DNA from: Escherichia coli
GTDB taxonomy: Bacteria; Pseudomonadota; Gammaproteobacteria; Enterobacterales; Enterobacteriaceae
Assembly (NCBI RefSeq): GCF_048403405.1
Contig: NZ_CP183129.1
DNA: 64,000 bases
Strand: one strand, 5' to 3'
Shown here: positions 19,916 through 25,772 of the stretch, piece by piece
Position numbering within the stretch: the stretch's first letter is position 1
Layout of the letters: the number at the start of each line of letters is the position of its first letter
The notes under the pieces: model-generated
What the model was told of the DNA's origin: nothing
Database searches by the model: none
Seen by the model: the letters and a program-made list of their open reading frames with translations, nothing else
Position numbers and translations under genes: made by a program

Positions 19916-20884
<969 letters not shown>

Positions 20885-23029
20885 TTAAAGTGCACAGGAG
20901 ACGCAGCCTTCAATTTCAGTGCCTTCCAGCGCCATCTGACGCAGGCGGATGTAGTAGAGCGTTTTGATACCCTTGCGCCAGGCGTAAATCTGCGCTTTGT
21001 TGATATCGCGAGTGGTGGCGGTATCGGGGAAAAACAGCGTCAGCGACAGCCCCTGATCGACATGGCGAGTCGCTTCCGCGTAGGTGTCGATGATCTTTTC
21101 TGCGCCAATTTCGTAAGCGTCCTGATACAGCGCCAGATTTTCGTTAGTCATAAATGGGGCAGGGTAGTAAACGCGTCCTGTTTTGCCCTCTTTGCGTATC
21201 TCTACTTTCGCCACAATCGGATGAATACTCGACGTGGCATGGTTGATATAAGAGATAGAACCGGTTGGCGGCACCGCCTGAAGATTCTGGTTGTAAATGC
21301 CGTAGCGCATCACGTCGTCGCGCAGCTGCGCCCACATCTCACGGGTAGGTAACGTAATACCGCTACGGGTAAACAGTTCGCCAACTTTCGCCGTTTTCGG
21401 CTGCCAGTTCCCTTGCAGATATTGGCTAAAATATTCACCACTGGCATAGCGTGACTGTTTGAACCCGGCGAAGGTTTCACCGCGTTCGCGCGCCAGCAAC
21501 ATCGAGGTACGCAGTGCGTGCCAGGTGATGGTATAGAAATAGAGATTGGTGAAATCCAGTGCTTCCGGCGAACCATAAGCGATGCCTTCTCGCGCCAGAT
21601 AGCCGTGTAAATTCATCTGCCCCAGTCCGATGGCGTGTGAGGCGGCATTTCCGGCTTCGATGGACGGCACGCTGCGGATATGACTCATATCTGACACCGC
21701 CGTTAAACCGCGCACGGCAGTCTCTACCGTGCGGGCAAAGTCGGGGGAATCCATGGTGTGGGCAATATTCAACGAACCTAAATTGCAGGAAATATCATGG
21801 CCTGTGCGGGCATAGTCGAGATTCTCGTCATACTCTGAGGCGCTGTTAACCTGCAAAATTTCTGAGCAGAGATTGCTCATATTTATGCGCCCGGCGATAG
21901 GGTTAGCACGGTTAACCGTGTCTTCATACATGATGTAGGGATAGCCGGACTCAAACTGGATTTCTGCCAGTCGCTGGAAGAAATCACGGGCGTTGATGTA
22001 TTTTTTGCGGATGCGTTCATTGGCAACCAGTTCGGCATAGTGTTCACTGATGGCGATATCAGCAAACGGCTTGCCATAAACCCGCTCAACGTCATAAGGC
22101 GAAAACAGTGCCATCTGCGCATTCTCTTTTGCCAGATGGAAAGTGATATCCGGGATCACCACGCCCAGCGACAGTGTTTTAATGCGGATTTTCTCGTCGG
22201 CATTTTCCCGTTTCGTATCGAGAAAACGCAGAATATCGGGATGATGGGCATGTAAATAGACTGCCCCAGCCCCCTGACGCGCGCCGAGCTGGTTGGCATA
22301 GGAAAATGCGTCCTCCAGCATTTTCATCACCGGAATCACGCCAGATGATTGATTTTCAATACGTTTAATTGGCGCGCCCGCTTCTCGCAGATTCGACAGC
22401 AAAAATGCCACGCCGCCGCCGCGTTTCGACAGTTGCAGTGCGGAATTTACCGCCCGGCCAATCGACTCCATGTTGTCTTCAATACGCAGCAAAAAACAGG
22501 AAACCAGTTCGCCGCGCTGCTGCTTACCACAGTTGAGGAATGTCGGTGTTGCAGGCTGAAAGCGTCCTGACAGCATCTCATCGGTCAGTTGCGTCGCCAG
22601 TGTTTCATCGCCTTGTGCCAGCATCAGCGCCACCATCGTGACTCGATCGGCAAAATCTTCCAGATAACGCTTACCGTCGAATGTCTTCAACGTATAGCTG
22701 GTGTAAAACTTCCATGCTCCGAGGAATGTCTGAAAACGAAAACCGCTGGCGTGTGCGTGGGCAAACAGCGTAATGACAAAATCGCGAGAGTAGCGGTTGA
22801 GGACGTTTTCATCATAGTAACCTTCGTTGACTAGCCAGTTCAGGCGCTGCTGCTGGCTACTGAAGGTCACACTGTTCGGACGCACATGTGTCGCCATAAA
22901 GGCGTCAACGGCCTGGCGATCTTTATCGAACTGAATGCGACCTGCGCTATCGTAAAGGTTAAGCATCGCATTCAGCGCGTGGTAATCCATCGTTTCCTGC
23001 GTCAGGCGTTCTGCGGTTGTCGTTGCCAA
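20885..23029 (-). CDS. nrdE: Class Ib ribonucleotide reductase alpha subunit
   Basis: 714-aa ORF with RNR large-subunit motifs (NLCSEI, C-terminal CVSC-type tail). Confidence 0.95.
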
Positions 23030-23412
23030 AATTCGGTTACTCCTTTACGAACGTTTTCGATATCGCTTTGCGTACCCATGAGTTCAAAGCGGTACAGCCA
23101 CGGCACGCCGCATTTCCGGGCTATCACATCTCCGGCGCGGCCATACGCCTCACCAAAGTTGCGATTACCCGAAGCAATAACGCCGCGCAGCAACACCCGG
23201 TTGTGCTCGTTGTTTAAAAAGCGAATGACCTGTCGTGGCACTGCGCCAGCCGTACCGCCGCCGCCGTAAGAGGGCACGATCAGGATGTAAGGCTCGTCTA
23301 CCTGAATCCGTTCCCGCTCATTGAGCGGGATGCGCACCGCGGGCAGACCTAAACGTTCGATAAAACGCTGCGTGTTTTCGGAGCTACTGGAAAAGTAGAC
23401 GAGCTGGCTCAT
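23002..23412 (-). CDS. nrdI: Flavodoxin-like protein NrdI
   Basis: 136-aa [24 protein letters not shown]..; overlaps nrdE start by 28 nt. Confidence 0.94.
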
Positions 23413-23654
23413 GCACTGGCCGCGTGTGGCGCTGGATGCAGACGATTGATCATGTCCGGGCGGAAACCAGACCAGCTAAGATCGCCAGCAATCACTACCG
23501 GCAACTGACGAAAGCCCTGAGCACGCAGCGCTTCCGCCGCTTCAGGAACGCGATCGACATTAATCATTTCAAAGTCAAAGCCCCGGTTTTCCATCGCCCG
23601 TTTGGTGGCGTGGCACTGAACGCAATCGTTACGAGTGTAAATAGTAATGCGCAT
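23409..23654 (-). CDS. nrdH: Glutaredoxin-like protein NrdH
   Basis: 81-aa ORF with CVQC redox motif ([22 protein letters not shown]..). Confidence 0.94.
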
Positions 23655-23727
23655 GATTCGTATTTCCGTTTAAAATGAAGATACGGCGCGATGATACGCG
23701 TCGGGTTGTCTCTCTGTTGATACAGAG

Positions 23728-23772
23728 ATACTAGATGTAGTTGAAAAAATATTCAACCATACAAGATATGGG
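23728..23772 (-). promoter_or_regulatory. Candidate tandem NrdR boxes upstream of nrdHIEF
   Basis: Minus-strand reading gives cccatatcttgtatgg and caactacatctagtat, two 16-bp palindrome-like boxes 29 bp apart, 74-118 bp upstream of nrdH; resembles the NrdR box consensus but is imperfect. Confidence 0.3.
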
Positions 23773-23862
23773 AATTTTAGATTGATTACGCCACCGATGA
23801 ATGGCTCAACGGGGTAGGGGATTTTGTGTTTTTTTGCCGGGCGAATACCCGGCATCAAGAAG

Positions 23863-24294
23863 TTACATCCGCATGGAAACGGCCAGACGGTTAAAACAAT
23901 TCATCAGCCCGATGGCAAACGTTAAGTCGCTGATCTCTGCTGCGCTGAAATGCTCAAGCAAAGGCTGATAAACCTCGTCTTCCGCATGGGTTCTGGCAAT
24001 TTCGGTTACCGATTCCGCCCATGCCAGCGCCGCCCGCTCGCGTTCATCAAAATGATGGCTTACGCGCCAACCTGCCAGGGCGTCCAGTTTGTGCTGTGGC
24101 ACGCCGGATTTGCGCAATGCTTTGCTGTGCATCTCCAGACAAAATGCGCAGCCGTTGATTTGCGAGACGCGCAAATAAACTAACTCCATCAACGTGGTAT
24201 CCAGCGTGCTATTTTCCAGTGCCGTTTTGGCCTGCACTAGTGCGTTATACACTGCCGGGCTAAGTTCGTAGTAAGGCTGACGTAATGTAGTCAT
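23863..24294 (-). CDS. AhpD-like / carboxymuconolactone decarboxylase family protein
   Basis: 143-aa ORF with aggaga SD; contains CxxCxxxH (GCAFCLEMH), the AhpD-type redox motif. Confidence 0.8.
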   Translation of the reverse strand: MTTLRQPYYELSPAVYNALVQAKTALENSTLDTTLMELVYLRVSQINGCAFCLEMHSKALRKSGVPQHKLDALAGWRVSHHFDERERAALAWAESVTEIARTHAEDEVYQPLLEHFSAAEISDLTFAIGLMNCFNRLAVSMRM

Positions 24295-24381
24295 ACAGTT
24301 TCTCCTCTTATTAACGCCCGCAATGTAGCACTATAATGGACTGCTAAAGAGAGCCATAAATTACCTAAAAAAGCAGACCAT

Positions 24382-25716
24382 ATGCCGCGCTATCAGGATA
24401 TCGCCCGTCAGTTAAAAACGGCTATTGAGCAAGGGGAACTGAAACCCGGCGCAAGGCTGCCTTCAAGTCGTACCTGGTCGCAGGAGCTGGGGGTGTCTCG
24501 ATCCACTGTCGAAAATGCGTATGCTGAGCTGGTGGCGCAAGGATGGCTGATCAGGCGGGGACAGGCTGGCACATTTGTCAGTGAGCGGATATATCCGCAA
24601 CAATCTACTGTACAAGTTGTAGCTTTTGCCGGTGAAAGTCAGCAACCGTTGCCATTTCAAATGGGATTACCCGCACTCGATCTCTTTCCGCGAGAGCTGT
24701 GGGCGCGGGTGATGGGGCGTCGCCTTCGTACCCAGACGCGCTTTGATTTGGCGTTAGGCGATGTCTGCGGTGAGGTGGCGTTGCGCGAGGCAATAGTTGA
24801 TTACTTACGCGTTTCACGTGGGATTGATTGTCAGCCAGAGCAGGTCTTTATCACTCACGGTTATGCGGCCTCAATAGCTTTAATTCTGCACGCGCTGGCG
24901 AAACCGGGAAACGGGATGTGGATAGAAGATCCCGGCTTTCCACTGATTCGCCCGATTGTCACTCGCCATGATGTGGAAATTTTGCCTGTGCCGGTTGATG
25001 ACAATGGACTGGATATCACAAGCGGAATACAAAATTATCCTGATGCGCGTTTTGCCCTGATAACACCAGCACACCAAAGTCCGCTGGGTGTGGCGCTCTC
25101 TTTAGCGCGCAGGCATCAGATACTGGAATGGGCAGATCGTAGTCAGGCATGGATTATTGAAGATGATTATGACAGTGAGTTTCGCTATCACGGTAAGCCG
25201 TTACCGGCGTTAAAAAGTCTCGACGCACCGCAGCGGGTAATTTATGCCGGAACATTCAGCAAAGCGCTATTTCCTGCATTGCGCTGTGCGTGGCTGGTGT
25301 TGCCGGTGAAGCAAATTGCACAATTCCGCCACCAGGCGTCACTGGCTCCATGTGCGGTACCTGTTCTATGGCAGAACACACTGGCAGACTTTCTTCGCGA
25401 GGGGCATTTCTGGCGGCATCTGAAGAAAATGCGTCAGCATTATGCTCAACGTCGGCAATGGATTGAGCAAGCGTTGACGCAGCAAGGATTTCAGGTTGTG
25501 CCGCAGAAAGGTGGTATCCAGATGGTGATCAGAATGATAGGCGATGATATTGCCCATGCGCGTAAAGCCAATGCTGCAGGCCTTGCGGTGCAGGCACTTA
25601 GCGACTGGCGTATCCGTTCAAGTGGGGAAGGTGGATTACTGCTCTCGTTTACTAATATCGTTAACGAAGGTATGGCGCGACAGGTAGCACAACAATTACG
25701 TAAAGCCTTAAGCTAA
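24382..25716 (+). CDS. MocR/GabR-type transcriptional regulator (GntR HTH fused to PLP-dependent aminotransferase-like domain)
   Basis: 444-aa ORF; N-terminal GntR-family wHTH (..SSRTWSQELGVSRSTVENAYAELVAQGW..) and large C-terminal aminotransferase-fold domain (..IYAGTFSKALFPALR.. with the expected Lys); divergent from the AhpD-like gene. Confidence 0.82.
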   Translation: MPRYQDIARQLKTAIEQGELKPGARLPSSRTWSQELGVSRSTVENAYAELVAQGWLIRRGQAGTFVSERIYPQQSTVQVVAFAGESQQPLPFQMGLPALDLFPRELWARVMGRRLRTQTRFDLALGDVCGEVALREAIVDYLRVSRGIDCQPEQVFITHGYAASIALILHALAKPGNGMWIEDPGFPLIRPIVTRHDVEILPVPVDDNGLDITSGIQNYPDARFALITPAHQSPLGVALSLARRHQILEWADRSQAWIIEDDYDSEFRYHGKPLPALKSLDAPQRVIYAGTFSKALFPALRCAWLVLPVKQIAQFRHQASLAPCAVPVLWQNTLADFLREGHFWRHLKKMRQHYAQRRQWIEQALTQQGFQVVPQKGGIQMVIRMIGDDIAHARKANAAGLAVQALSDWRIRSSGEGGLLLSFTNIVNEGMARQVAQQLRKALS

Positions 25717-25743: not shown

Positions 25744-25772
25744 AAAGACGCGTATTTATTATCATTTTTGCA

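Follow-up and report, generated by a model that had tools for sequence, protein, structure and literature searches.

Two boxes upstream of nrdHIEF in Escherichia coli very probably form a natural allele of the known NrdR operator

The question raised by this locus was whether two palindrome-like boxes that lie upstream of nrdH are the operator through which NrdR represses the class Ib ribonucleotide reductase operon nrdHIEF. Bacterial deoxyribonucleotide synthesis has NrdR as its master repressor, a protein that has been considered as a target for antibacterials. For E. coli K-12, the NrdR operator of this operon is said to have been described by Rodionov and Gelfand in 2005 and by Torrents et al. 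in 2007. The DNA analysed was a stretch of 64,000 nucleotides from the E. coli contig NZ_CP183129.1, the whole of which is referred to as the window. The region of ∼1 kb around the boxes was 100% identical to strain TUM14771 and had matches in 5421 of 5426 complete E. coli genomes. nrdH, nrdI, nrdE and nrdF were assigned from the list of open reading frames together with the RefSeq annotation of TUM14771. The genes at the locus are as follows.

23654..23409, minus strand: nrdH, with its ATG at 23654
23412..23002, minus strand: nrdI
23029..20885, minus strand: nrdE
20875..19916, minus strand: nrdF
19916..23654, minus strand: the regulated operon nrdHIEF, class Ib ribonucleotide reductase
24294..23863, minus strand: carboxymuconolactone decarboxylase (CMD) family gene, the next gene upstream of nrdH

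The nrdR gene lies outside the 64 kb window and was found in 5424 of the 5426 complete genomes of E. coli, a count that applies to the species and not to this particular isolate. nrdHIEF is the most strongly NrdR-repressed operon of E. coli, with a reported >150-fold derepression in an nrdR mutant (PMC4409342). One proteomic study found no increase of NrdEF in an E. coli nrdR deletion.

The initial annotation had placed a tentative NrdR operator pair at 23655-23862. This interval does cover both boxes but spans the entire intergenic region between nrdH and the CMD gene, and the operator itself was narrowed to 23728-23774. The description of two imperfect 16 bp palindromes was confirmed, with 4 of 8 symmetric pairs in box 1 and 5 of 8 in box 2. 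Read along the minus strand the sequence runs TAAAA, TTCCCATATCTTGTAT, GGTTGAATATTTTTT, CAACTACATCTAGTAT, CTCTG, and was divided into the following elements.

23774..23759, minus strand: NrdR box 1 (promoter-distal), TTCCCATATCTTGTAT, 16 bp, 4/8 symmetric pairs, 6/6 core positions
23758..23744, minus strand: linker GGTTGAATATTTTTT, 15 bp, which holds the putative -35 hexamer
23743..23728, minus strand: NrdR box 2 (promoter-proximal), CAACTACATCTAGTAT, 16 bp, 5/8 symmetric pairs, 6/6 core positions

A linker of 15-16 bp separates the centres of two such boxes by about three helical turns. NrdR boxes have been defined as 16 bp partial palindromes in which C4, A6, A8, T9, T11 and G13 are highly conserved (bioRxiv 10.64898/2026.05.11.724285), and the canonical linker between them is 15-16 bp (PMC12176259, bioRxiv 10.64898/2026.05.11.724285). 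Binding of NrdR needs both boxes; the length of the linker matters and its sequence is irrelevant. All six core bases were present in box 1 and again in box 2, and the 15 bp linker falls within the canonical spacing. The A+T content between C4 and G13 was 6/8 (75%) in each box, for a published native range of 63-100%. The distance from box 2 to the nrdH ATG is 73 nt. The spacing of the boxes had been slightly misestimated at about 29 bp; the start-to-start distance is 31 bp. The accompanying remark that spacing and sequence fit the NrdR consensus only in part was too cautious, given six of six core positions in each box and a linker of canonical length.

The boxes were then placed relative to the elements of the promoter, which were read from the sequence and from motif alignment.

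23756..23751, minus strand: putative -35 hexamer TTGAAT, read from the sequence, near-invariant in orthologs, inside the linker
23733..23728, minus strand: putative -10 hexamer TAGTAT, the last six bases of box 2, in columns that are 99-100% conserved
23754..23778, minus strand: probable IscR type II activator site, with the right half-site TATGG at 23761..23757 and a register taken from motif alignment

TTGAAT and TAGTAT are separated by a 17 bp spacer and together match the consensus hexamers at 8 of 12 positions. This falls under the threshold of a generic promoter scan, which therefore missed the pair. The generic promoter and terminator scan returned chance-level matches only (TCAACA-18-TATCAT and a plus-strand stem at 23684-23703). 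With an inferred transcription start near 23721, box 2 would extend from about -22 to -7 and overlie the -10 hexamer, and box 1 from about -53 to -38, directly upstream of the -35 hexamer. An overlap of NrdR boxes with the polymerase site is described in the literature. nrdHIEF has been reported to be activated from a type II IscR site in which the -35 element is embedded in the right half-site, the half-sites having the form CCxYA (PMC8561392). TATGG at 23761..23757 fits the IscR half-site TRxGG. As this half-site overlaps box 1, NrdR and IscR probably compete at the promoter.

The frequency with which such a pair would be expected by chance was estimated across the window. Single boxes carrying the six-position core occurred 12 times in 64 kb, fewer than the ∼18 expected, so that a lone box with an intact core carries little meaning. 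A pair of cores with a 15-16 bp linker occurred once in 64 kb, at nrdHIEF, and any such pair was seen in only 1 of 300 dinucleotide shuffles of the window. When one mismatch was permitted, the paired pattern again gave 1 match in 64 kb, against 0.09 expected. An independent position weight matrix drew only on the remaining four E. coli boxes for which binding had been shown by experiment (boxes 1 and 2 of nrdAB and of nrdDG), as given in published oligonucleotides. The nrdHIEF pair was the top-scoring pair in the window with this matrix, at 12.0, with a runner-up of 5.0. Among 300 shuffles of the 64 kb, 11 contained a pair that scored as high, which corresponds to p ∼0.04 window-wide, and a matrix of four boxes is too small to decide the matter. 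Box 1 alone ranked 65 of about 64,000 positions. The motif scan that had been proposed as a check thus found the pair to be unique by pattern and first by matrix score.

Conservation in orthologous promoters, the second check that had been proposed, was assessed in a set of 80 loci from Enterobacteriaceae, with one genome taken per species with NrdH (Escherichia, Citrobacter, Salmonella, Enterobacter, Klebsiella, Raoultella, Kosakonia, Lelliottia and others). The strict pair was kept in the nrdH promoters of 75 of the 80 species. In these 75 the linker was 15 bp without exception, and 71-75 nt lay between box 2 and the nrdH ATG. Each of the other 5 species departed from the pattern at one core position. 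One Citrobacter had G at position 6 of box 2, and in the Klebsiella oxytoca group the C of box 1 had moved to position 3, which gives a C-G distance of 9 bp; published mutagenesis found this distance to be tolerable in one box. Counted over all fetched loci containing nrdH, the paired pattern was at the same place in 78 of 83.

In an alignment of 82 sequences, mean column identity to the window reached 0.96 in box 2, 0.84 in box 1 and 0.76 in the linker, and was 0.45 in the sequence preceding box 1. All twelve core columns were 95-100% identical in this alignment. Within the linker GGTTGAA was nearly invariant and the other bases were variable. Part of this conservation must stem from the overlapping -35 hexamer, -10 hexamer and IscR site and not from NrdR. 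The form of box 1 in the window, TTCCCATATCTTGTAT, was the commonest among the 80 species and was found in E. albertii, in both Salmonella loci and in many Citrobacter, Enterobacter and Lelliottia. Since the box 1 of the window is the majority form across Enterobacteriaceae, it is the K-12 box 1 that is the outlier.

The operator of K-12 has been characterised at the same locus and promoter, with the same 15 bp linker length and the same core positions as in the window (Rozman Grinberg et al., 2025, PMC12176259). The nrdEF oligonucleotide used for microscale thermophoresis was a 57-mer with the order ACTAT, TTGCTATATATTGTGT, GGTTGAATCTTTTTT, CAACTACATCTAGTAT, CTCTG, to which EcoNrdR bound with a KD of 138 nM in the presence of ATP and dATP and of 187 nM with ADP and dATP; NrdR loaded with ATP alone did not bind it. 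The counterpart in the window is TAAAATTCCCATATCTTGTATGGTTGAATATTTTTTCAACTACATCTAGTATCTCTG. The two sequences share box 2, the 3′ flank and the 73 nt distance between box 2 and the nrdH ATG, and the linkers agree at 14 of 15 bases, the window having A where K-12 has C. Upstream of box 1 the two sequences have diverged over ∼55 bp, and the upstream neighbour of nrdH is the CMD family gene in the window and ygaM in K-12. The E. coli nrdDG and nrdAB operators (the latter through its boxes 1 and 2) likewise consist of two 16 bp boxes with a 15 bp linker, and are bound by NrdR-ATP/dATP with affinities of 113-160 nM, similar to the K-12 nrdHIEF site.

Between K-12 and the window, box 1 (TTGCTATATATTGTGT and TTCCCATATCTTGTAT, respectively) differs at positions 3, 5, 10 and 15, that is at four of 16 positions of a box to which binding was measured. 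Because NrdR requires both boxes, these differences leave room for a reading in which the sequence is maintained by RNA polymerase and IscR, the diverged box 1 binds NrdR weakly or not at all and the haplotype largely escapes repression. The reported overlap of the IscR site with the -35 region, and the modest score of box 1 with the independent matrix, would fit such a reading. The four differences are all at non-core positions, however, and published mutagenesis indicates that any change at box positions 3/14 and 7/10 is tolerated and that A5C does no harm if position 12 stays A or T. Position 12 of box 1 in the window is T, which satisfies the condition for A5C. The changes at 3, 5 and 10 are therefore at positions found by experiment to be tolerant, and position 15 lies outside the published mutagenesis. 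With the core kept, the differences at tolerated positions and the A+T content in the native range, near-normal NrdR affinity is predicted for the box 1 allele of the window. Loss of repression also sits poorly with the standing of this box 1 as the majority form of the family, and with the 95-100% conservation of C4 and the central A/T columns, which are dispensable for RNA polymerase and for the IscR half-sites.

Evidence from Salmonella bears on the same point. In S. enterica subsp. diarizonae and arizonae both boxes are identical to those of the window, with three base changes in the linker. When the NrdR1 box was mutated in S. Typhimurium, nrdHIEF was derepressed to the level of an nrdR deletion, so that this box is required for repression there; mutation of the NrdR2 box, which overlaps the -10 box, was without effect (Panosa et al., 2010, PMC2892513). 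An escape of this haplotype from NrdR is accordingly held to be improbable, and the pair is preferred as a functional NrdR operator.

A further reading would assign the boxes to another regulator, Fur, or to chance A/T-rich palindromes. nrdHIEF is Fur-repressed, and in EPEC strain E2348/69 the name 'FUR box' has been given to the 8-mer CGTAATCA (Cendra et al., 2012, PMC3458845), which in the window directly precedes box 1 (23783-23790, minus strand). The 19-mers around CGTAATCA matched the Fur consensus at <11 of 19 positions, and the Fur consensus GATAATGATAATCATTATC had no match within 3 mismatches anywhere in the 64 kb window. Fur boxes were rejected as the identity of the pair, as no 19-mer in 23655-23900 reached at least 11/19. 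The uniqueness of the paired NrdR pattern in the window, and its presence at the same place in most nrdH loci, also count against both forms of this reading, which is given almost no weight. Motif fit, uniqueness, the match with K-12 and the orthologs together support the earlier proposal of an NrdR operator, and it is considered very likely that the two 16 bp boxes, 15 bp apart, are the NrdR operator of nrdHIEF in the form of a natural allele. The operator of this operon is already known, and mechanistically there is nothing new here; the one mildly new angle is that the nrdHIEF control region of E. coli has a two-haplotype structure.

This structure was examined among the 5426 complete E. 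coli genomes. A 72 bp segment comprising box 1 together with its upstream flank (23759-23830) was found in 1384 of them. A block of two genes between ygaM and nrdH (23863-25716), made up of the CMD gene and a divergent gene for a PLP-dependent (GntR-type) regulator, was found in 1387 genomes, essentially the same set as the 1384 that carry this box 1 allele. The K-12-type segment, which lacks the block and has another form of box 1, was found in 4031 genomes; in a sub-type of it, represented by strain S2, box 1 was the same as in K-12. As many other genera also have the two-gene block between ygaM and nrdH, the arrangement and box 1 allele of the window are taken, on this comparison of sequences, to be ancestral and the K-12 arrangement to be a deletion. 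The identity of the 'FUR box' of E2348/69 with CGTAATCA suggests that this strain carries the window-type haplotype.

The best Fur-like box near nrdHIEF was AAAAATGATAATAAATACG (25751-25769, minus strand), which matched the consensus at 13 of 19 positions and lies directly after the ygaM stop codon. Its distance to the nrdH ATG is ∼244 bp in K-12-type genomes and ∼2.1 kb in the window, where the two-gene block intervenes. S. enterica subsp. diarizonae has a 14/19 Fur match ∼394 bp before nrdH, inside the CMD gene, whereas the homologous sequence of the window, aligned by hand, matched at only about 10 of 19 positions. With the Fur-like box ∼2.1 kb away, and no match of at least 11/19 in the intergenic region of nrdH, Fur control of nrdHIEF may be organised differently in the window haplotype.

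Several further features were observed around the operator. A G+C-rich hairpin, GCCGGG TATTCG CCCGGC (23836-23853, minus strand), lies just 3′ of the CMD stop codon and is followed on the transcribed strand by a run of A, not U (23835..23829). The terminator scan did not call this hairpin and found no canonical intrinsic terminator between the CMD gene and the nrdH promoter, so that read-through from the CMD gene into nrdHIEF is possible. The C-rich motif CCCCTACCCCG (23810-23820, minus strand), ∼40 bp upstream of box 1, is shared by the two E. coli haplotypes and by most of the 80 species, at ∼70-97% per column, with surroundings at ∼45%.

In the putative 5′ leader (23655-23705), CCCGACGCG (23705..23697), CGCGCCG (23690..23684) and TTTTAAACGGAAATACGAATC before the ATG were nearly invariant across the 80 species, a degree of conservation that exceeds the needs of a ribosome-binding site. 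CCCGACGCG and CGCGCCG form an imperfect inverted repeat. The predicted fold of the leader gave z = 0 against shuffled sequences and thus no evidence of a structured leader, and a permissive Rfam scan of 23300-24400 returned no match.

If the pair acts as in K-12, NrdR bound to both boxes would exclude RNA polymerase, and probably IscR too, since the -10 hexamer lies within box 2 and the probable IscR site overlaps box 1. In the K-12 literature, ATP as the only nucleotide drives NrdR into higher oligomers or filaments incapable of binding, and nrdHIEF is for this reason derepressed when the ratio of dATP to ATP is low. It is rather doubtful that the two haplotypes differ measurably in the control of class Ib reductase expression by NrdR, IscR and Fur; if they do, the difference might show, for example, in pathogenic lineages that are short of iron or exposed to oxidative stress. 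The K-12 box 1 is a minority form among enterobacteria, and the allele of the window, which appears to be ancestral, is the most widespread, so that binding studies based on K-12 miss the commonest natural box 1.
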